NCBI GenBank assembly: GCA_964406775.1
Contig: CAYOSW010000004.1
Coordinates: 7,392 to 71,391 of the forward strand
Source of the DNA: an uncultured Gammaproteobacteria bacterium
Lineage (GTDB): Bacteria; Patescibacteriota; Microgenomatia; Daviesbacterales; UBA10151
Length of the DNA stretch: 64,000 nt
Reading direction: 5' to 3'
Position 1 is the first letter of the stretch. Every line of letters starts with the position of its first letter. Position numbers and translations under genes: made by a program. A model generated the notes under the pieces. The model saw nothing but the letters and a program-made list of their open reading frames with translations. It was not told the DNA's origin and made no database searches. Below are positions 5,389-56,732 of the stretch, piece by piece.

Positions 5389-5915
5389 TATTTATAAGCC
5401 TCCCAGGCTTTATCTTTTTCGGAGACTATCTCAACATTAATCGGCCAGTTAACTTTAAAAGACGGATCATCAAATCTTATTCCTCTTTCAAATTCTGCTG
5501 TAAAAGGCTGGTCCGAAAAATTTATGAATTCCGTATTATCTTCCAAAGTTAAAATTGCGTGGCCGCAATTGGGCGGAGTTAAAAGCATTTTGTAGTCACC
5601 GGCTTTTAATTCAAATCCTTCAATCTCTCCGTAAGTTGGTGAATCCTTCCGTAAATCAATTACCAGCTCGTATATTGATCCGCTTGTAACCCTGGTTAAT
5701 TTATACTCTGCAAAAGGAGGGACTTGATAATGGATCCCTCTCATTGTTCCTTTTTTCTCTGTAAAAGAAACATATCCCTGAATGACATTAAAAATTATTC
5801 CCCTCTCTTTAAATTTTTCGGTATCAAAAGTCCTCGCCAGAAACCCCCGGTCATCCGCTTTTTTCTCAAGTTCTATAATGAAACAATCCTTGATCTTAGT
5901 TTGAATAAATTTCAT
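5388..5915 (-). CDS. NDP-4-dehydro-6-deoxyhexose 3,5-epimerase (RmlC/RfbC-like cupin)
   Basis: 175 aa cupin. MKFIQTKIKDCFIIELEKKADDRGFLARTF matches the RmlC N-terminal consensus. Confidence 0.7.
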   Translation of the reverse strand: MKFIQTKIKDCFIIELEKKADDRGFLARTFDTEKFKERGIIFNVIQGYVSFTEKKGTMRGIHYQVPPFAEYKLTRVTSGSIYELVIDLRKDSPTYGEIEGFELKAGDYKMLLTPPNCGHAILTLEDNTEFINFSDQPFTAEFERGIRFDDPSFKVNWPINVEIVSEKDKAWEAYK

Positions 5916-5917
5916 AG

Positions 5918-6973
5918 TTATATTTTCCAGAAAAAATTTTTGTCAATTTGTTTAGTTTTAACCAGATGCTCTATCTCCTTAAGTCTGGTATAAGCTCTGG
6001 ATTCGAAAGTCTCTTTATCTAGTGCAATTGACTCAAAAACTTTTTTTAGATCTTTTACACCTTCCTGAACTGTCCGTTTTAACACCAGTTTTGGAAAAGT
6101 CCTTTTAATTTTTTCGAATGAAACTCTATAAGAGCGGGTGTCTCCATCAGGTTTTCCGAATGAAACTTTGCAACCCGGAAGAACTTTTCCGATTATTTCT
6201 GCAACCTCACGTACTTTATAATTTCCATCTGTATTTCCTACATTAAAAACCTGATTCTGTACTAAGTTTTTCGGTGCTTCCAGAACTGCCAGAAATGCTT
6301 CGCAAACATCAAGGATGTGAACAAGCGGCCTCCAAGGTGTTCCGTCAGAGGACATCCTAATTTCTTTCTCAGTCCAGGCTATGCCTGACAAATTATTAAC
6401 GACTAAATCAAATCTCATTCTCGGAGAAGGTCCGAATACTGTTGCGTTCCGCATATAAGCTACTGTAAAGAAAGGATCGGCCAATTTTTGAAGATCCTGT
6501 TCGACCAATAATTTACATTTAGCATATGCAGTTTGAGGAAAAACCTCCGATGTCTCATCTACCATTCCATCTTTTGCTATACCGTAAATGGAACAGGATG
6601 AGGAATAGATAAATCTTTTTACACCGGCTTTTTTAGCAAGCTTCGCAAGTCTGACTATTGCAGTGTGGTTGATATCGTATGTATTTTTAGGATCCTGATT
6701 TCCTAAAGGATCGTTGGATAAATCTGCAAGCGAAATAACAGCATCAAAACCTTTTAAATCCGTAAGAGTTATTTCTCTGGTATCCTTTGTTATTACTTTC
6801 GGGGAAAATTTTACTCCGTTATATAGCCAGCCTTCCCGGTAAAAACCGGAATCAATTCCCGTCACGTCGTGACCGCGCTTCATAAACACCTGAGCCATCT
6901 GAGTTCCGATATACCCGTCAATTCCTGTAATTATTACTTTCATTTTTTTACCAGACTTTCCAGGGCGCTTCAC
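5918..6973 (-). CDS. NAD-dependent epimerase/dehydratase (extended SDR), candidate CDP-sugar 4,6-dehydratase/epimerase/reductase
   Basis: MKVIITGIDGYIGTQ (TGxxGxxG) and YAKCK (YxxxK) motifs. It lies between the cytidylyltransferase and the RmlC-like epimerase. Confidence 0.7.
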   Translation of the reverse strand: MKRPGKSGKKMKVIITGIDGYIGTQMAQVFMKRGHDVTGIDSGFYREGWLYNGVKFSPKVITKDTREITLTDLKGFDAVISLADLSNDPLGNQDPKNTYDINHTAIVRLAKLAKKAGVKRFIYSSSCSIYGIAKDGMVDETSEVFPQTAYAKCKLLVEQDLQKLADPFFTVAYMRNATVFGPSPRMRFDLVVNNLSGIAWTEKEIRMSSDGTPWRPLVHILDVCEAFLAVLEAPKNLVQNQVFNVGNTDGNYKVREVAEIIGKVLPGCKVSFGKPDGDTRSYRVSFEKIKRTFPKLVLKRTVQEGVKDLKKVFESIALDKETFESRAYTRLKEIEHLVKTKQIDKNFFWKI

Positions 6974-28385: not shown

Positions 28386-29372
28386 TTACACATTCTTTTT
28401 TCTTCTTAGTACTTCTAAAACCGCTTTTTTTATATTCTCCTGGGTTAATCCGAATTTTTTTAGTAGCTCTGCGGGTGTTCCGCTCTCACCGAAGGTGTCT
28501 TCTATTCCGATTCTTTTAATCGGAACCGGGAATGACTCCGAAACAGCCTCTGCAACCGCACCTCCCAACCCTCCGTTTATCTGATGCTCCTCAGCTGTCA
28601 CTATTGCACCTGTTTCCTCAGCTGCATTCAGAATTGTTTTAGTATCTAAAGGTTTAATTGTGTGGTTATTTATTACCCGAACACTTATATTATCCTTTTC
28701 CAGTTCTTTAGCGACTTTTAACGCCATATAAACCATCTGTCCGCAGGCAATTATCGTTACGTCCTTTCCCTGCATTAAGACTTCAGCTTTACCGACTTCA
28801 AAAGGCGAGTTTTCACTTGTGATTGTCGGAACTTTATCGCGGGATAATCTTAAATAGGAAGGTTTACCATTTTTGGCGATGGCCAGAGTGGCTTTTTTAG
28901 CCTCAATCCAATCCGCAGGGACAACAACAACCATATTCGGGAGAACCCGCATCATAGCTATGTCCTCAAGCGCCTGGTGCGTTGCTCCGTCAGGACCGAC
29001 CGAAATTCCGGAGTGTGATCCGACAATTTTTACCGGCTGATTGTTATAGCAGATGGTTGTTCTGATCTGCTCCCAATTTCTTCCGGGTGAAAAAGTGGCA
29101 TAAGACGAGGTAAAAGGGATTTTTCCTTCGTGAGCCATACCGGAGGCAACCGTTACTAAGTTTTGTTCGGCAACTCCGATTTCTATAAACCGCTCGGGAA
29201 ACTTTTTCTTAAAAGCCTCCATCCTGGTTGATTCGGTAAGATCAGCACAAAGCCCAACCACATTAGGATTTTCCTCCCCGGCAATAACCAACCCCTCCCC
29301 GAACCCATCCCTCGAGGGTTTCATTTCAATATCCTCATCAAATAATTTAGGATTTAGGGTAATATTTGTCAT
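28386..29372 (-). CDS. Transketolase, C-terminal subunit (pyrimidine-binding + C-terminal domains)
   Basis: 328 aa that aligns to the C-terminal half of transketolase. The partner N-terminal subunit is 300 bp upstream. Confidence 0.85.
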   Translation of the reverse strand: MTNITLNPKLFDEDIEMKPSRDGFGEGLVIAGEENPNVVGLCADLTESTRMEAFKKKFPERFIEIGVAEQNLVTVASGMAHEGKIPFTSSYATFSPGRNWEQIRTTICYNNQPVKIVGSHSGISVGPDGATHQALEDIAMMRVLPNMVVVVPADWIEAKKATLAIAKNGKPSYLRLSRDKVPTITSENSPFEVGKAEVLMQGKDVTIIACGQMVYMALKVAKELEKDNISVRVINNHTIKPLDTKTILNAAEETGAIVTAEEHQINGGLGGAVAEAVSESFPVPIKRIGIEDTFGESGTPAELLKKFGLTQENIKKAVLEVLRRKKNV

Positions 29373-29373
29373 A

Positions 29374-29664
29374 TTATCTTTTTACATAATTTCTCAAAAA
29401 CCTTCTGTTGATCATAAAGAATAATATAAAAGGAACGATGATAGTAAAGATTTTTAGTATTGGTTGTAAAACAGATGGAATAAAGCAATGACTAAAATCC
29501 AGTTCAGGATTTATAACTACACCAAGACCAGGTAATGGACAAACAAGAACAACATTCTGAAGATTGCTTAACACTAAAAATTGATTATAAAGTAAATCCA
29601 CTGAAAGAAGTAAAAACCAAGTAAAAATAATACTTAAAAGTATTGATAAGATATTTATTGCCAT
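29374..29664 (-). CDS. Hypothetical small hydrophobic protein (96 aa) encoded in an AT-rich spacer between the transketolase halves
   Basis: Two or three predicted TM helices and no SD. The DNA is much more AT-rich than its flanks. Coding status is uncertain. Confidence 0.25.
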   Translation of the reverse strand: MAINILSILLSIIFTWFLLLSVDLLYNQFLVLSNLQNVVLVCPLPGLGVVINPELDFSHCFIPSVLQPILKIFTIIVPFILFFMINRRFLRNYVKR

Positions 29665-29674
29665 AAAATTTAGA

Positions 29675-30562
29675 TTATTCCTTGATACTTTTTATTTTTT
29701 TCTCTAACTCTTCTAACTGTTTCAACGCTTCTTTTGCTTGTTCTCCTTTTGCAGGAGCTCCTTCAATGTCCATCCCGTCCGGTGGTGCACCGTGCCATTC
29801 ATATCTATTTTCCATATAGGAAACTCCTTTTCCGGGGATTGTGTTAGCAATAATCATTGTCGGTTTATCGTATATAACTTTGGCATCCTCGCAGGCATTA
29901 ATTATTTCATCAAAACTGTGACCGTTAATTTCAATTACATTCCAATTAAACGCCCGGTATTTATCGGCAACCGGATCAAGCTTCATAATATCCTCCGTGT
30001 GCCCGTCAATCTGCATATTATTGCGGTCCATTATCACTGTCAGATTTCCCAATTTATAATTGGCGGCAAACATAATTGCTTCCCAGGTATTACCTTCCTG
30101 ATGTTCGCCGTCCGAAGTCACGCAGTAAACACGCCAGGGCTTCTTATCCCGAATCCCGACTAAAGCCATCCCCGCAGCTTGGGATAAACCTGAGCCCAAC
30201 GGACCGGAAGTTGTTTCAAGGCCCGGCAGAGCCTCTCTGTGCGGATGACCCTGCAAGCGGGTTCCAAGTTTGCGCAAAGTCTTCAGCTCATCAACCGGAA
30301 AAAATCCCCTGCGCGCCATAGCCGAATACATAACAGGGCAAATATGTCCGCAGGATAAAACAAACCTATCCCTCTCATCCCAACCGGGTTTTTCCGGATT
30401 TATATTTAAAATTTTGAAGAAAAGAGCGGTAAAAACATCAGCCATCCCCAGAGGTCCGCCTGAATGACCCGAGCCGGCTTCAACCAGCATCTTAATAATA
30501 TCCCGGCGGATTTCATTTGCCTGAAGTTCCAAATCCTTGAATTCGTGCGGGGACAGCTGCAT
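29675..30562 (-). CDS. Transketolase, N-terminal subunit (TPP-binding)
   Basis: The GHSGGPLGMADVF TPP-binding motif. 295 aa. Confidence 0.85.
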   Translation of the reverse strand: MQLSPHEFKDLELQANEIRRDIIKMLVEAGSGHSGGPLGMADVFTALFFKILNINPEKPGWDERDRFVLSCGHICPVMYSAMARRGFFPVDELKTLRKLGTRLQGHPHREALPGLETTSGPLGSGLSQAAGMALVGIRDKKPWRVYCVTSDGEHQEGNTWEAIMFAANYKLGNLTVIMDRNNMQIDGHTEDIMKLDPVADKYRAFNWNVIEINGHSFDEIINACEDAKVIYDKPTMIIANTIPGKGVSYMENRYEWHGAPPDGMDIEGAPAKGEQAKEALKQLEELEKKIKSIKE

Positions 30563-50929: not shown

Positions 50930-51691
50930 ATGCCCGCTTATGGATCCGGAAAAAGGCGTAAAAAAATTTTTACAGCCTTAGTCATTTGCCTCATTTTACT
51001 GTCGGTATTTTATCTTAACAGGTCTTATGCCAGAATTTTTGAATATACGAATCAATTTCCCGTTTCGAAAATTCAAGCTTCATATACTTTAACGGAAGGT
51101 CAGGGCTCAGAGGTACTTAAATACACAGCTCTGGGGGACAGTCTGACTTACGGATTCGGCGCCCCGGACTATCAAAACACGTATCCTTTCGTTTTCGCTA
51201 AAAAATTTCTAAACAAATACAAGTCGGTTGAGGTAAGCAATCTTGCCCGGCCCGGAGCCGTTTCTCAAGATGTAGTCACCTTTCAGTTACCTGAGGCTTT
51301 AGAGATAAATCCCGGATTTGTCACTTTGATGATTGGCACAAACGACGTACACGACTATGTCGGTGAAAAAGATTTTCAGCTTACTGTAGAAAAAATTGTG
51401 GATAGTCTTCAGGCAAATACGCAAGCCGGAATTCTACTGATAAATATTCCCTATCTTGGGACAGATTCTTTAATATTGCCGCCGTTTAATTATTTTATGG
51501 ACTACAGAATAAAAAGATACAATAAAATATTGCTTGAAATAGCAAAATCCAAAAAGATAAAATACTTTGATCTGTACACTTCATCTTTCAAAAACTTTAA
51601 AGATAATCAGGATATTTATTATTCTTACGACGGCTTTCATCCGTCCTCAGCCGGGTATATTTTTTGGGGAGATTTAATTAATGCTGATTAG
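50930..51691 (+). CDS. SGNH/GDSL hydrolase
   Basis: Block I ALGDSLTYG, block III MIGTNDV, block V DGFHPS. N-terminal TM anchor. Confidence 0.75.
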   Translation: MPAYGSGKRRKKIFTALVICLILLSVFYLNRSYARIFEYTNQFPVSKIQASYTLTEGQGSEVLKYTALGDSLTYGFGAPDYQNTYPFVFAKKFLNKYKSVEVSNLARPGAVSQDVVTFQLPEALEINPGFVTLMIGTNDVHDYVGEKDFQLTVEKIVDSLQANTQAGILLINIPYLGTDSLILPPFNYFMDYRIKRYNKILLEIAKSKKIKYFDLYTSSFKNFKDNQDIYYSYDGFHPSSAGYIFWGDLINAD

Positions 51692-52772
51692 TATCCCAGA
51701 TCCCTACTTTCAAACCTCCGTCTTTTCAATAATTCTACTTCTGGCAGTTCTAATTACAGCCCAAAAAGATAAAAAACCGCACGAAATGAATATTGAGCAT
51801 ACTAATCAACTCAAAGGTGTTGCCATATTAATGGTTATTTTTTCCCACATCGGTTATTTCCTCGATTCGGGAAGATCCTTTCTTTATCCTCTTTCGGTCG
51901 CCGGAGGAGTCGGGGTAAATATCTTTCTTTTTCTTTCCGGATTCGGACTTACGATATCGGCTTTAAAATCTCATCACTCTGTTCTAGGTTTTTACTGGAA
52001 AAGATTATCCAGGATTTTCCTGCCAATGTGGCTCATTCTGGTTACATTCTTAACAATGGATTGTTTTTTTCTGAAGATCAAATATTCCCAAGAAACTTTA
52101 ACACATTTATTTTTTGGATTTGTCCCTTATGCCGATATATATTTGAGTTTTAATTCTCCGCTTTGGTATTTCACACTGATACTTTTTTATTATATGATAT
52201 TCCCTCTCGTATTCTGGAAAAAAGCACCGATTCTTTCTGCCGCTCTAATTTTAATTATCAGCGTTTTTGTTTTAAGACAAAATTTACCGGTCGTACCGGA
52301 TGTTTTAAAACTTTATAAACTTCACTTCATCGCGTTTCCTATCGGTATAACTTTTGCCATTCTCCAGAATTCAAAATACCGTTTAACAAGTTTAATTAAG
52401 GGCGTTAATCCCTTTTTACGGTATGTCCTGGTGTTCTTTTTAGTCTTATCCATAAGTTATACAGCAATACATTCGGGCGTAGGAGAAAAAACAACAATTG
52501 AACAATCAATCAGTTTAATAACTATGGCCTCGTTTATTTTTATAGTTTTGCTTTTTCCTTATCACTCAAAAGTTCTGGGAATTTTTGGGGTCTATTCCTA
52601 CGAGATTTATCTTATACAATGGCCGGTTTTATACCGCTATGATTTTCTGTATAAATATTTTCCTGCCGGAATCGCTACGGTGCTTTATCTTATTTTCTTT
52701 ATCGGTGTAAGTTTCCTGATCAAAAAAGCCGTTGATTCAATTTTCAGTATCCACTCCAGGAGAGAAAAGTAA
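51681..52772 (+). CDS. Acyltransferase family 3 (OatA/OafA-like membrane O-acyltransferase)
   Basis: N-terminus QLKGVAILMVIFSHIGYF is the AT3 motif. About 10 TM helices. 11-nt overlap with the SGNH gene. Confidence 0.8.
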   Translation: MLISIPDPYFQTSVFSIILLLAVLITAQKDKKPHEMNIEHTNQLKGVAILMVIFSHIGYFLDSGRSFLYPLSVAGGVGVNIFLFLSGFGLTISALKSHHSVLGFYWKRLSRIFLPMWLILVTFLTMDCFFLKIKYSQETLTHLFFGFVPYADIYLSFNSPLWYFTLILFYYMIFPLVFWKKAPILSAALILIISVFVLRQNLPVVPDVLKLYKLHFIAFPIGITFAILQNSKYRLTSLIKGVNPFLRYVLVFFLVLSISYTAIHSGVGEKTTIEQSISLITMASFIFIVLLFPYHSKVLGIFGVYSYEIYLIQWPVLYRYDFLYKYFPAGIATVLYLIFFIGVSFLIKKAVDSIFSIHSRREK

Positions 52773-52848
52773 TGTAAGGTTTGCTGGCGTACAAAAACGC
52801 TATTCGAACATACTATCAGACAACACAAGGTCAATTTAATATTCGGAA

Positions 52849-53388
52849 CTATCTATAAAAGAGACTAGTTGTATAAATAGTATTTGCATCGTCTTGTTTA
52901 TTGCTAACGAGGTAAAAATCAGTAAAAACTAATTCTTTGCAATCAGAAAGTTCATCGATAACCTTTTGTTGATGCTCTTTTGGAACAAACCAAACAACTT
53001 TTGTATACGGCGTTGCTACGGTATTGTCTCCAGCTCTTTCTCTAACAAATGCAACTAGATCTTCCGTCTGTTCTAATCCAAACTCAATCGCAATATGTTC
53101 TGCACCAGCCATTGTGACTTCATCTTTTATAAAAACCTTTTTAGTACGCAATTTAACAGGAAGAAAACGTTTCAAATCGTGCAAAAGATCAAGTTGATCC
53201 CGAACATCTCGGATTGAAGCATCGTGTATGAATGTTAAAGTTAAATGTCTAAAAACGTCGTATCCAGATATGGGATTAGGCTTTTTGCTGTATTTTTTCT
53301 CCAAATTGTCGAAGAATGCTTCCTGATCTTTGGAGAGGCGACCAAATATCCCAAGTGCTTTTATTGTATTTGAAGATAATTCAAGCAT
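52849..53388 (-). CDS. Hypothetical protein (179 aa); weak 2H-phosphoesterase-like HxTx motif
   Basis: A single HLTLTF (H-x-T-x) motif. The second motif is not conserved. Part of the three-gene islet next to tRNA-Gln. Confidence 0.35.
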   Translation of the reverse strand: MLELSSNTIKALGIFGRLSKDQEAFFDNLEKKYSKKPNPISGYDVFRHLTLTFIHDASIRDVRDQLDLLHDLKRFLPVKLRTKKVFIKDEVTMAGAEHIAIEFGLEQTEDLVAFVRERAGDNTVATPYTKVVWFVPKEHQQKVIDELSDCKELVFTDFYLVSNKQDDANTIYTTSLFYR

Positions 53389-53423
53389 ACTCCTATTCTA
53401 GCATTTTAATTACTTGCTAGTAT

Positions 53424-53990
53424 CTAATGTTCATCGTTTTTTAATTTTTCTTTAATTATTCGATCTTTTCTCTTTATCTCCATTACTTCCTTGTAGATTT
53501 TATCAATGAGAGCTTGTGGAACTTGTTGAGGAAGACCTGTCTTTAGTTTTTCAGCAAATGCAATAGCTTTTTTTGCTCTATCTTGTAGTTGTTCAGGTAA
53601 TTGCTCAAGAGTTAAATGGTGAGCTTCTTTAGTATATCCATATTTGCTATATTTTGCAAAAAATTCATTGATATCTTTGACGTTCTTGCTACTACCAGTG
53701 GGATTTCTTGTATACAAAACAAACTCTTTGTCAGCTCTGCCAACATTGATAATGAAATCTTGTTTGAAAATAGGAGTTTTGATCTCGTGATGATATGTGT
53801 AAACTCCAATAACTTCATCTCCATTTGTAGGATATGAAGTAACTATCATTGCAGGAGAGACAAATTTTTCTGGGTAAATATTTTTTAGTGCTTTAAAAAA
53901 ATCTAGATGCGTTTTACACCAAGTGACTAATTCCTCTGAAAATGGCTGTAGTTCAAGTATCACTTCTTCCAGTGTAATTTTCTTGTTCAT
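53424..53990 (-). CDS. Hypothetical protein (188 aa)
   Basis: Intact ORF with no recognizable motif. Charged helical C-terminus. Confidence 0.35.
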   Translation of the reverse strand: MNKKITLEEVILELQPFSEELVTWCKTHLDFFKALKNIYPEKFVSPAMIVTSYPTNGDEVIGVYTYHHEIKTPIFKQDFIINVGRADKEFVLYTRNPTGSSKNVKDINEFFAKYSKYGYTKEAHHLTLEQLPEQLQDRAKKAIAFAEKLKTGLPQQVPQALIDKIYKEVMEIKRKDRIIKEKLKNDEH

Positions 53991-54014
53991 AAATACTTAT
54001 TTATTCATTTCAAA

Positions 54015-54572
54015 TTAACGATGGCGAGGTGCTGGATGGGTATAAATGTTTTTATGTAATGGAATAATTTCTAATGAAATACTTTTTATTGCTGTTATTA
54101 CCTGAGAAATTAGAATTAGAGCAGATGCGGTAAGTACTACCCACCAAACAATCGTCCAAATATTGGATCTCCACCAAGTATTTTTCAAAAACTTCGTCTC
54201 AGTTAATACGCGACCAGCTAAAATGCCTTCTCTATTAATCTTTACACTTGGTTGCTTAGGATCAGGTGCGTCTCCTACTTCTCCAAACCCATAAACTGGA
54301 AGACTTTCTAAAATATGGCGTGCACTACCTTGTATTCGTTCCTTTTCTTTTTCAGTAATAAATTTTTCTTCGACACAGTATTCTAAAGCATTCTTTACAT
54401 GGTTTATTCCTATGAAAGATCCGAGATGTTGGTGGTGGATACTTGCTCCCCAAACCAAAACTGCCTTGACACCACTCCAAAGCGTTTTTTCTCCTTTTTC
54501 ACTCTCAAACTCCATTAATTGTTGAAGAATGTCGAATTTTTTAAATGATGTAGGTGTAAATGGTAAATTCAC
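54015..54572 (-). CDS. Hypothetical protein with C-terminal TM helix (185 aa)
   Basis: GTG start. Soluble N-terminal domain plus a single C-terminal TM (IWTIVWWVVLTASALILISQVI). The start abuts the tRNA-repeat region. Confidence 0.35.
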   Translation of the reverse strand: MNLPFTPTSFKKFDILQQLMEFESEKGEKTLWSGVKAVLVWGASIHHQHLGSFIGINHVKNALEYCVEEKFITEKEKERIQGSARHILESLPVYGFGEVGDAPDPKQPSVKINREGILAGRVLTETKFLKNTWWRSNIWTIVWWVVLTASALILISQVITAIKSISLEIIPLHKNIYTHPAPRHR

Positions 54573-54772
54573 AAATGTTATTAGCTCATCCTTTCAAAAA
54601 TTGGTTCGAACCTAATGATAAAAGATAGGTTATTGTCGTTATACCCGCATAAACCATTCACTATTATTAGTGGAATGCAGGAAAAAATAGAGATTTTACT
54701 GGACGCATTCGAACCCGAAGAATTGCTTGATTTATCAACCTATTCGGATACTTCTAACCCTGTTATTCCGAG

Positions 54773-54791
54773 TTTGCTGCGGATCAGGGAT
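54773..54791 (-). repeat. 19-bp direct repeat identical to the 3' end of tRNA-Gln plus flank (tttgctgcggatcagggat)
   Basis: Exact second copy of 54893-54911. The sequence after it diverges and does not fold as a tRNA. Confidence 0.55.
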
Positions 54792-54897
54792 GAACACGAT
54801 TCGCCTGCGGCGAATTCCGAACCAAATCAAAGATTTAATCCGAATCCTTCCGTCCCAAAAGAAAATTTCCGCTTCAAGCGAAGCAAAATTTTCTTTG

Positions 54898-54969
54898 CTG
54901 CGGATCAGGGATTCGAACCCCAATAGACAGATCCAGAATCTGTCGTCCTACCATTAGACGAATCCGCAA
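54898..54969 (-). tRNA. tRNA-Gln (anticodon CUG)
   Basis: The reverse complement folds as a cloverleaf: acceptor UGCGGAU/AUCCGCA (U1-A72), D-loop AAUGGUA, anticodon stem ACAGA/UCUGU with loop UUCUGGA (U33, CUG), T-loop UUCGAAU, discriminator G73. CCA is not encoded. Confidence 0.8.
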
Positions 54970-54990
54970 TATATATTACTTACTAATCAG

Positions 54991-55032
54991 TTCCGTCTAA
55001 TGGGGCGTGTTGCATTAGACGATCCCGCAATA
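54991..55032 (-). repeat. Degenerate copy of the tRNA-Gln 5' end / D-arm (hairpin CGTCTAATG...CATTAGACG plus ATTGCGGG flank)
   Basis: CATTAGACGATCCCGCAATA differs at 2 of 20 positions from the genuine tRNA 5' region 54950-54970. Confidence 0.45.
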
Positions 55033-55082
55033 AGTTTACAAATTTTACCAGAAATCAGCTTTCCAAACAATTTAATCTGTCT

Positions 55083-55469
55083 ATGTTAAAAAAAGGCCGG
55101 CTTGTTTATAATCGCCTTAAACTTATGGTCGAAAGTGCACAACACCCGGCGCCCGAAAGAGATAATCCATTTATCTTACCCGGAGAGCTGCCTTCCTGGC
55201 CAAGAATCTCCCTACAACCGCTTCGGGCCTTTGCTGAATCTTTGGCTCAAAGACAATCAGCATTCAGAAAGAGAATCCCCGCATATTCAGGAAGAATAAT
55301 TCTAGTCAGCGGATTATTAATCGGCGGAGGAACGGCTGTCTGGAGTTATAGCGACGAATTGGGGACCTTAGGAAAAGATATAAGTGCCGGAATTGTAGAT
55401 TTTTTCGGACCCCAACCTATCTATTTTGTAAACTCGGATTTCGGGCAAAAAGTTGAACCTATGCCTTAA
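55083..55469 (+). CDS. Hypothetical protein (128 aa)
   Basis: ORF with one hydrophobic segment (IILVSGLLIGGGTAVW). No motif. Confidence 0.3.
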   Translation: MLKKGRLVYNRLKLMVESAQHPAPERDNPFILPGELPSWPRISLQPLRAFAESLAQRQSAFRKRIPAYSGRIILVSGLLIGGGTAVWSYSDELGTLGKDISAGIVDFFGPQPIYFVNSDFGQKVEPMP

Positions 55470-55502
55470 TGGTCCGGGATTTTTCTGATACAATCAGAAT
55501 TT

Positions 55503-56732
55503 GTGGTTAGCAATCTGAAAACATTTTCTTCGTTAAAATTCCCTGATTTTAGAAATTACTATTTCGGTACTTTGTTTTCAGAAGTAGGAACCCAAATGCA
55601 GGTCGTTGCCGTAAATTGGCAGATTTACGAGATTACCCGTTCAGCTGCCTCACTTGGATTCGTCGGATTATCCGCCTTTCTGGCAGTAATAATTTTTTCT
55701 CTTCCTTCCGGACTGATTGTTGATAAATTAAATAGAAAAAAAGTTTTGCTTTTTTCCCAGATATTCCCCTGTTTTGTAGCTCTGACTCTGACAATGATGA
55801 GCTATTTCCACACTATTAATCCGCTTGCTATATATATTCTGGTTTTCTTAAGTTTTGCCGCGCTGGCTTTTCAGGGACCGGCCCGCCAGTCGATAATCCC
55901 TCAGCTTGTTCCCAAGGAATATTTTGTCAATGCATTTTCCCTTCAGACTATTGGCCGTCAGGTTTCACTTATGCTTGGTCCCGCAATTGCCGGATTTGTA
56001 ATTGAGTTTTTAGGCGTTGAGGCAGTTTATGCTTTTAATTCAATTACTTTCATCATCTATGTTCTTTTACTTATCCCGATACATATTAAGCCGCATACAA
56101 TCGTAAACGAGGTTTCATATTCTTTCAAATCGCTCTGGGAAGGCATACATTTTGTACTGACTAATCAGATATTAATCTACACTATGGCTTTGGATTTTAT
56201 TGCCAATTTCTTCTCCTCCGCCACAACTCTTCTTCCCATTTTTGCAAAAGATATTTTTATGATCGGCCCCAAAGGACTGGGGCTTTTGTACAGCGCTCCC
56301 GCGATCGGATCAACGATTGCGGGTTTAGTTATTGCCTCCGTCCATAAAATTAAAAACCAGGGCCTCTGGATTTTAGCCGGCGTCACTTTATACGGCGCGG
56401 CAACAGCCGCTTTCGGATTATCGGGTTCTTTTCTTGCGGCCATTATCTTCCTTTGCTTTGTCGGTGTAGGAGATATGATATCGGCAATCTTCCGGACCAC
56501 AATGCGCCAGATTCTTACGCCTGATCATTTGAAAGGCAGAATGATTGGCGTCAATATGATCTTTGTTCAGGGCGGACCTATGGCGGGAGAGGCGGAAGCC
56601 GGATTTGTCGCTCAATTCTTCGGGGCTCCGTTCTCAGTCGTCTCGGGCGGAATAATAACTGTTGCCTTAACGCTTCTTATAGCCTGGAAGGTTCCGAAGT
56701 TGAGAAAATACCAATCTCCTGTAATAATATAG
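55503..56732 (+). CDS. MFS transporter
   Basis: GTG start. 12 TM helices. The D-K-x-N-R-K-K loop between TM2 and TM3 (IVDKLNRKK) is typical of MFS. Confidence 0.8.
   Translation: MVSNLKTFSSLKFPDFRNYYFGTLFSEVGTQMQVVAVNWQIYEITRSAASLGFVGLSAFLAVIIFSLPSGLIVDKLNRKKVLLFSQIFPCFVALTLTMMSYFHTINPLAIYILVFLSFAALAFQGPARQSIIPQLVPKEYFVNAFSLQTIGRQVSLMLGPAIAGFVIEFLGVEAVYAFNSITFIIYVLLLIPIHIKPHTIVNEVSYSFKSLWEGIHFVLTNQILIYTMALDFIANFFSSATTLLPIFAKDIFMIGPKGLGLLYSAPAIGSTIAGLVIASVHKIKNQGLWILAGVTLYGAATAAFGLSGSFLAAIIFLCFVGVGDMISAIFRTTMRQILTPDHLKGRMIGVNMIFVQGGPMAGEAEAGFVAQFFGAPFSVVSGGIITVALTLLIAWKVPKLRKYQSPVII

Follow-up and report, generated by a model that had tools for sequence, protein, structure and literature searches.

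A strain-variable islet of three unannotated genes beside tRNA-Gln(CUG) at a probable site of serial integration in an uncultured bacterium

We analyzed a 64,000-nucleotide stretch of contig CAYOSW010000004.1 from an uncultured bacterium (hereafter, the window), in which a tRNA-Gln(CUG) gene on the minus strand is followed directly downstream by an islet of three small minus-strand genes, here called A, B, and C. The islet is a strain-specific insertion of 1,993 bp (52787-54779, minus strand): it is present in some relatives and absent from others, and in one relative a different island of ~21 kb occupies the same short core sequence. We consider this region to be probably a site of serial site-specific integration at the CAG|CAAA end of tRNA-Gln, with the islet as a decayed or nonautonomous occupant of a nearby copy of the tRNA 3' end (R1).

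Contigs of relatives were retrieved by exact-protein look-ups, and their loci carry labels of the form L###. The same islet is present in L009 (96.5% identity over 7 kb) and in L010. L013 and L014 are ~94% identical to the window over 9 kb on the tRNA side and ~89% identical on the other side; both have an MFS gene, a small open reading frame (ORF), and tRNA-Gln, and in L013 an acyltransferase gene follows at once. In the window, this family-3 acyltransferase gene (OafA/YrhL-like; 51681-52772, plus strand) is the conserved flank beyond the islet, and in empty-site strains it abuts R1 directly. Based on BLASTN alignment, L013 joins window position 54778 straight to position 52782, which places the islet breakpoints at 52782|54778, and the same joint was found in L011. 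The tRNA-Gln(CUG) gene is also present in L012, L013, and L014. Assembly of L009 and of L014 stops at or within the tRNA, which is what one expects of contigs that break at a polymorphic joint. A syntenic metagenome-assembled genome (MAG), L001, has a gltX gene with 80% identity to that of the window; it bears the label Gammaproteobacteria, which we distrust. Against cluster representatives, the gltX of the window reaches no more than 56% identity, and the few named ones among the best are Chloroflexota, Planctomycetota, or simply "bacterium".

A 206-kb contig (L011 and L012; Logan SRR13076555) has the same flanks, with ~21 kb inserted at the tRNA 3' end. The insertion point corresponds to window positions 54892-54903, at the CAG|CAAA end of the genuine tRNA. 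Toward the acyltransferase gene the junction is TTTGCTG|GGGCTGG, and toward the tRNA it is CTTGGCTG|CGGATCAGGG. This island (L011:11100-21092 and L012:13650-21491) encodes a large serine recombinase with Resolvase, Recombinase, and Zn_ribbon_recom domains, along with a ParB-N6/N4 methyltransferase, an M78 peptidase/HTH pair, DUF4417 and SHOCT proteins, and an 11-kb polysaccharide-synthesis cluster. The island was seen as two loci, with the 3-kb stretch between them (record positions 83,002-86,001) left out; it may consist of two elements in tandem, as its recombinase gene is mid-island. With the empty site, the islet, and the 21-kb island, there are therefore at least three states of this site in one species-level population. 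The initial annotation had read duplicated tRNA ends as the footprint of integration and had proposed a decayed integrated element or a cargo islet, and both the empty site in L013 and the serine-recombinase island at the same core directly support that proposal. The islet is not a remnant of the 21-kb island, given that neither L011 nor L012 carries A, B, or C and that, beyond the core, the ends of the two resemble each other no better than shuffled sequence does.

The islet is bounded by a 7-bp direct repeat, TTTGCTG (at 52780 and 54773), which reads CAGCAAA on the tRNA strand. It is bracketed by R1 and a second repeat, R2, on one side and by another repeat, R4, on the other. The candidate attL junction reads ...ATTCCGAGTTTGCTGCGGATCAGGG and the candidate attR junction reads GTAAGGTTTGCTGGCGTACAAAAACG; the empty-site junction reads GTAAGNTTTGCTGCGGATCAGGGATGAAC, or a degenerate form of it, and the joined ends of the islet read ATTCCGAGTTTGCTGGCGTACAAAAACG. 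Along the tRNA strand, the order of features is a 5' pseudo-copy of the tRNA, the tRNA, a terminator, a hairpin, R1, R2, R3, gene A, gene B, gene C, and R4.

The tRNA-Gln gene is intact, and the islet starts 119 bp from its 3' end. ARAGORN identified the gene as the sole tRNA in the whole window (anticodon CTG; 54897-54968, minus strand), and two Rfam searches placed it at 54898-54968, scoring 57 bits against a gathering score of 29; over the 64 kb, Rfam found no RNA family besides tRNA-Gln. The single genuine tRNA of the initial annotation was thus recovered by both programs. The trailer CAAA is followed by a terminator-like hairpin with a T-tract (54857-54888, minus strand), recognized as an inverted repeat with a 9-pair stem and the tail ATTTTCTTTT. 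A second small hairpin lies between this one and R1 on the tRNA strand.

The 19-mer TTTGCTGCGGATCAGGGAT occurs at 54894-54912 and at 54773-54791, 121 bp apart. This exact copy of the tRNA 3' end had been noticed initially, and it is the only second site: we found no third in the window at ≤3 mismatches, against a chance expectation of 0.01. On the tRNA strand, the 19-mer comprises the 3' half of the T-stem, the 3' strand of the acceptor, the discriminator, and a 4-nt trailer. R1 (54773-54797, minus strand), the tRNA-proximal boundary of the islet, consists of these 19 exact bases and a 2-nt gap, after which the match resumes into the T-loop, for 19-25 nt overall. The 19-bp pair does not bracket the islet. 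Instead, it encloses a 121-bp unit that holds the tRNA terminator and occurs in all sampled strains, and the islet lies between R1 and R4, a degenerate copy that the initial annotation had not noticed. R1 matches at 19/19 only in the islet-bearing contigs (the window and L009) and is degenerate, reading TTTGCGGCTCAGGGAT, in the islet-free L013 and L011. The presence of a perfect R1 with the islet fits recombination between a copy of the tRNA end that was borne by an element and an older copy that had decayed. In islet-free strains, the degenerate R1 is not a clean R4/R1 recombinant, as the registers do not fit.

All of the repeat copies, R1 through R4, were aligned with the tRNA end. R2 (54695-54714, minus strand) is a degenerate tRNA-3'-end-like repeat, GTTCGAATGCGTCCAGTAAA. 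R4 (52780-52809, minus strand), also tRNA-3'-end-like and reading GTTCGAATAGCGTTTTTGTACGCCAGCAAA, is the distal boundary of the islet and lies 7 bp from the stop codon of the acyltransferase gene, which is convergent. The pattern GTTCGAAT N3-22 CCAGYAAA matched R2 and R4 alone in the 64 kb, with 0 matches expected. The T-loop-like sequence TTCGAACC had five matches in the window, four of which fall inside 54603-54919; they include 54603-54612, which is the palindrome GGTTCGAACC, and 54708-54715. One of the two T-loop-like remnants listed in the initial annotation therefore stands where it was placed, and the second is at 54708 and not at 54697. The palindrome, R3 (54603-54612), is ~30 bp upstream of gene A and may be a remnant or an operator-like site. 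A 103-aa ORF (54615-54926, plus strand) that is called in L009 crosses R3, R2, and R1 into the tRNA in antisense; it matched no family, and we regard it as almost certainly spurious.

On the other side of the tRNA, a 5' pseudo-copy (54994-55032, minus strand) was identified by repeat comparison and is kept in all strains. Within it, 55013-55032 matches the acceptor and D-arm sequence at 54952-54971 with 18/20 identical bases, so the 5'-end copy reported earlier is real, albeit shorter than reported. An inverted D-arm copy at 54994-55003 can pair with the 5'-end copy as a 9-bp hairpin. The hairpin has a single mismatch that differs from strain to strain and is uncompensated; for this reason, we read the pseudo-copy as a neutral, decaying scar. 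It sits in the divergent promoter region between the tRNA and the ORF at 55083-55469.

The clustering of T-loop-like and D-arm-like pieces within 450 bp could be taken to mean that the repeat copies are parts of extra functional tRNAs, or that together they form a tRNA-like regulatory RNA. We give this explanation next to no credence. ARAGORN and Rfam (the latter in E-value mode over 52000-56000) found one tRNA and nothing more, and at the level of these two programs additional tRNAs are refuted, with no further cloverleaf in the window. Moreover, the copies are fragments of 10-30 nt, and the upstream hairpin has its different uncompensated mismatch in each strain.

The composition of the islet is atypical, as the initial annotation had suggested. 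Its GC content is 0.342, compared with 0.400 for the window, and falls in the lowest 5% of windows of the same size; its tetranucleotide distance of 0.35 (mean 0.22, standard deviation 0.03) is the largest among 63 windows. GC content alone is not diagnostic here because the neighboring conserved acyltransferase and GDSL genes have GC contents as low as that of the islet. The scanned ORFs of the window included no gene for an integrase, a recombinase, or a transposase, and there was none in the annotation tables of the syntenic loci for 40-64 kb, in keeping with the earlier statement that the window has no integrase. Genes A, B, and C have no recombinase domains. Lacking a recombinase of its own, the islet is not classed as an autonomous element.

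These observations can be ordered into a model of serial integration. The crossover core would be CAG|CAAA, made up of the last three tRNA bases and the trailer. An old event may have left the 121-bp unit that ends in the tRNA 3'-end copy R1, and the recombinase-less islet of 1,993 bp would then have come to occupy the core copy within R1, as a secondary site, in the strain of the window. Repeated integrations of this kind would have left the stack of tRNA-end copies. The islet itself, having lost a recombinase or never having had one, would be what is left of an integrative element after decay, or else a nonautonomous element moved by a recombinase acting in trans. As for the enzyme, the short shared core fits a serine recombinase, the sole type of recombinase seen at the tRNA-Gln site; the 19-25 nt of the R1 copy are more typical of the att sites of tyrosine integrases.

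Several points weigh against serial integration. The window lacks a recombinase, and a search of viral contigs for the joined ends of the islet turned up neither a circular nor an attP form; both an attP-like 21-mer across the joined ends, which is a weak test, and the R4 pattern were absent from those contigs. Beyond the short core, the ends of the islet are unlike those of the 21-kb island, which leaves nothing to connect the islet with that recombinase. The exact boundary repeat is just 7 bp, and R2 through R4 are degenerate, their homology to the tRNA resting on short motifs. The direction of the event is also at issue, since the pattern would look no different if the other strains had undergone a deletion in place of a gain in this one. 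Finally, C is found downstream of tRNA-Gln(CUG) in very distant genomes at saturated synonymous divergence (dS), and the linkage could therefore be partly old synteny.

Compared with known systems, the locus is a familiar kind of feature: a tRNA-linked integration hot spot with a decayed or nonautonomous islet, ordinary and strain-variable. The CIMEs of Streptococcus thermophilus, which are related to the elements ICESt1 and ICESt3, are cis-mobilizable elements, a concept that PMC3146451 cites. Our islet resembles them in sitting at a site that autonomous elements also use; it differs in that its att-like ends are degenerate and that mobilization in trans is only a candidate mechanism for it. 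Islands and prophage remnants at tRNA genes, as Williams reportedly set out in Nucleic Acids Res in 2002, have tyrosine integrases and att cores that run from the T-loop to the 3' end. The partial duplication of the tRNA 3' end in R1 (19-25 nt), extending from the T-loop to past the discriminator, is similar, and so are the serial remnants, the atypical composition, and the empty sites in relatives. In contrast to those classical islands, we saw no tyrosine integrase in the window or in the parts of the sister loci that we fetched, and the only recombinase seen at the site is a serine recombinase.

The ssrA genomic islands (ssrA-GIs) of Dehalococcoides lie in tandem between 20-bp copies of the ssrA 3' end and are integrated by a large serine recombinase (PMC3146451, McMurdie et al. 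2011). Their integration module also has a ParB-domain protein, and some members lack the recombinase and were read as cis-mobilizable or fixed remnants (PMC3146451). Like the ssrA-GIs, the locus described here has tandem, strain-variable islands of low GC content downstream of a small RNA gene, with direct repeats of its 3' end, and the 21-kb island in L011 likewise combines a serine recombinase with a ParB domain. However, the target here is tRNA-Gln(CUG) and not tmRNA, the exact core is 7 bp and not 20 bp, and the islet is just 2 kb long, has no integration module, and has no demonstrable link to the recombinase of the neighboring strain. Our case is of a textbook type, documented both by an empty site and by the other island that occupies this site. 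It is of value mostly as a well-delimited example from a poorly known uncultured lineage that is related to, or exchanges genes with, Patescibacteria, for which descriptions of mobile elements and integration sites are scarce. What remains new are three conserved protein families that lack annotation and the unexplained way in which C and B recur beside tRNA-Gln(CUG) across very divergent genomes.

The three genes span 52849-54572 as ORFs exactly as initially described, all on the minus strand. Gene A (54015-54572) encodes 185 aa with a conserved cytoplasmic domain and a C-terminal transmembrane helix, gene B (53424-53990) encodes a soluble protein of 188 aa with the motif FKQDFI, and gene C (52849-53388) encodes 179 aa with a predicted 2H-phosphoesterase fold. 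The spacers are 24 bp between A and B and 35 bp between B and C; these are too short for attC sites, and with no integrase present we rejected an integron cassette array. None of the three proteins had a significant match in Pfam, NCBIfam, PADLOC, or PHROGs, consistent with the lack of recognizable domains noted at the outset, and weak matches to a CdiA tRNase, Csx1, and CARD among A, B, and C were judged to be noise. All named homologues of the three come from Patescibacteria (Roizmanbacteria, Woykebacteria, Shapirobacteria, and entries named "Patescibacteria group"). We found no relatives of A, B, or C in IMG/VR or among INPHARED phages, and none of C in PLSDB plasmids, and on this basis we set aside a phage or plasmid origin. 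A, B, and C may be among the unannotated families enriched in candidate phyla radiation (CPR) bacteria (compare PMC6744442).

The protein encoded by gene A has 51 homologues besides the window's own sequence, with 36-83% identity, and its invariant residues are W32, W41, H47, G116, and G120. Hydropathy analysis identified a single transmembrane helix, at residues 141-159, which accords with the C-terminal helix in the initial annotation and makes A a predicted tail-anchored membrane protein; it had no match in the PDB by sequence. For B, the search returned 78 hits, including the window's own sequence, and the homologues are 35-78% identical. The structure model of B is confident and had no fold match in the PDB. 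Profile matches of B to PDB entries were coiled-coil design proteins aligned at the helical C-terminus, which we attribute to composition.

C has 232 homologues, and the best 120 of them are 66-91% identical. The structure model (predicted local distance difference test score of 89.7) was compared with the PDB using Foldseek, and 2H enzymes or proteins with a 2H fold make up nearly all of its ~45 best hits, most with a probability of 1.00 and TM-scores of 0.5-0.63; they include YjcG, LigT, plant CPDase, Usb1, and AKAP18, as well as a mitoribosomal protein from a trypanosome. According to the model, C has the 2H-phosphoesterase fold, with two predicted lobes related by pseudo-two-fold symmetry. 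The motif H48-x-T50-x-T52 (H48-L-T50) is invariant, and the only other invariant histidine is in H98-I-A100. This second motif is atypical, with alanine replacing the T/S of the canonical H-x-T/S, and based on the order of secondary-structure elements it may lie off the canonical strand. C therefore resembles the 2H superfamily (LigT, YjcG, plant CPDase, Usb1, the AKAP18 central domain, and Acb1) in its predicted fold and in an H-x-T-x-T motif on the central strand, but it differs from that superfamily in its second motif, H-x-A, and in being invisible to sequence profiles. As a 2H protein it had no match in Pfam or NCBIfam, a profile search of the PDB was empty, and hhalign against a bona fide LigT-like neighbor gave a probability of 0.4. 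These results flag three abundant, strongly conserved, and unannotated families of small proteins, one with a cryptic 2H fold (C) and one without a fold match in the PDB (B).

Whether A, B, and C form a module was assessed from 33 loci, representing ~22 distinct places in genomes, of which ~10 have several kilobases of flanking sequence. Outside the window's own species, each homologue occurs without the other two, and the trio is found only in that species; A-B-C is thus neither a functional unit nor a conserved operon. Homologues of A and B are found in non-tRNA contexts, which is part of an observation named beforehand as contrary to an integrated islet; this argues against a module and not against integration.

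The initial annotation had raised the possibility that such an islet holds a defense or toxin module. In that case, A would serve as the effector in the membrane, B would be a sensor or an enzyme, and C would be a regulatory phosphodiesterase, all carried together as defense-island cargo. The location of the genes in a hot spot, their tight packing on one strand, with spacers of 24 bp and 35 bp, and the transmembrane helix of A are all in its favor. Phosphodiesterases of the 2H family cleave the signals of CBASS (antiphage signaling systems based on cyclic oligonucleotides); an example is Acb1, a phage anti-CBASS enzyme (PMC9117128). The closest homologue of C (91% aa identity) is in L024, 77 bp downstream of a type-I-like CBASS pair. 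We nevertheless regard a defense module as very unlikely. PADLOC did not support it, as the best E-value was 0.012 (for B) and there was nothing for A or C, and each homologue stands alone in the ~22 other places. In addition, most contexts of C are housekeeping-like, its neighbors there including genes for a nucleoside hydrolase, for UDG, and for a CoA-binding protein.

The contig L024 (3 kb; Logan SRR23592405) shares 605 bp with the window at 89.6% identity, from gene C through R4. The contig ends at the R4-like sequence, and everything upstream of C differs from the window: the cargo there (L024:837-2962) encodes a LexA-like repressor, a putative protein with two transmembrane helices, and a CD-NTase cyclase (PADLOC PDLC00803, E = 1.2e-80), the last two of which make up the type-I-like CBASS pair. 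Between the window and L024, the dS of C is 0.35, and between the window and the sister L013 the dS of gltX is 0.39. From this mosaic, C together with R4 behaves as a conserved island end whose adjoining cargo has been swapped. The proximity of C to the cyclase could reflect a signal-degrading regulator or could be a coincidence; given that Acb1 belongs to the 2H family, the CBASS neighbor is suggestive and no more.

In three lineages, gene C follows tRNA-Gln(CUG) downstream and shares its strand, at distances of 1.5 kb in the window, 3.8 kb in L042-L045, and 5.3 kb in L022. L042 shares with the window the order gltX, a gene of unknown product, an S11 peptidase gene, and aspS; the proteins encoded in this shared order are 28-44% identical, whereas the C proteins are 83% identical. 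Between the window and L042, the nonsynonymous divergence (dN) of C amounts to 0.10 and that of gltX to 0.55, with saturation at synonymous sites. Likewise, dS is saturated against L022, L042, L015, L019, and L023, which excludes a recent transfer from the sampled named Patescibacteria donors.

Such linkage bears on a different history, in which the islet is ancestral and was lost elsewhere through illegitimate or short-homology deletion between the TTTGCTG repeats, with no mobile element involved. The positions of C in the divergent L042-type genomes and in L022, the gltX-unknown-S11-aspS order common to L042 and the window, and the occurrence in L041 of a B-like gene 50 nt downstream of tRNA-Gln(CUG) count in favor of an ancestral arrangement, and the saturation of synonymous sites in C relative to L022 and L042 speaks against recent transfer from those lineages. 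We hold this history to be unlikely on account of five other observations. The islet is the strongest compositional outlier of the window, and R1 is perfect only where the islet is present. R4 and C recur behind different cargo in L024 at a dS that is like the divergence between strains, a sister strain has a recombinase-bearing island at the same core, and nowhere else do A, B, and C occur as neighbors. Serial integration at the tRNA-Gln end remains the reading that we prefer.

A further proposal is that C, with its 2H fold, and B are specifically tied to tRNA-Gln(CUG) across Patescibacteria-type genomes and are not random cargo, which we consider decidedly unlikely. The proposal draws on the distances of C from this tRNA in the three lineages, on the conservation of C relative to housekeeping proteins, on the tRNA-3'-end-like R4 that follows C in two contexts (the window and L024), and on the tRNA-end 9-mer with which the C cassette begins in L022. 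If they were so tied, C could act on tRNA, for example by healing 2',3'-cyclic phosphates after attack by an anticodon nuclease. Alternatively, C could be the conserved terminal gene of recombinase-independent cassettes that target the 3' end of tRNA-Gln. Were the linkage functional, it would point to a tRNA-centered repair or mobility system in reduced genomes.

Additional repeats and B homologues were observed in other genomes. In L042 (2972-3403), the 3' end of tRNA-Gln(CUG), GTCCGGCAGCT, is repeated 350 bp downstream, and the two copies bracket a 75-aa GIY-YIG-like mini-ORF; the pair looks like a tiny insertion at the same tRNA end. In L022, a Patescibacteria-type MAG contig, the 9-mer that ends the tRNA, GGCAGCAAA, in the form (G)GCAGCAAA, starts a 145-nt repeat that occurs twice, at 1364-1508 after a LigT-like 2H gene and at 5823-5962 just ahead of the C homologue. 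The same C homologue is also bracketed by a separate direct repeat of 43 nt (88% identical; 5398-5440 and 6553-6595) and looks like a repeat-bounded cassette. The B-family gene of L041 (63-713), a contig from a 0.1-µm groundwater fraction, encodes a protein with 32% identity that keeps FKQDFIVN. Other B homologues are located 0.65 kb downstream of tRNA-Asn (L037) and 1.9 kb downstream of tRNA-Lys (L039). L025 (4670-9910) and L026 come from a more distant relative of the window organism (71% aa identity for GSDH and 49% for LTD), with a B homologue (77-79%) ~2 kb from the LTD gene, close to genes for an Mrr-like nuclease, DUF333, DDAH, and DUF1622; this is a different variable spot in the same chromosomal neighborhood.

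The first ORF past the tRNA (55083-55469, plus strand) has no exact copy on record and is itself variable or decaying, as its product is 128 aa long in the window but was called at 114 aa in L012 and at 69 aa in both L013 and L014. Elsewhere in the window, the gene content includes pentose-phosphate genes, many glycosyltransferases, and DsbD/thioredoxin proteins; this content and the gene order in common with L042-type contigs suggest a lineage related to Patescibacteria. Transketolase is split into N- and C-terminal genes (28386-30562), beside rpe and rpiB. A complete shikimate pathway, which is unusual for Patescibacteria, is encoded in the syntenic L012 and L013, and together with the split transketolase it makes an odd pairing for a genome with Patescibacteria-like accessory genes.

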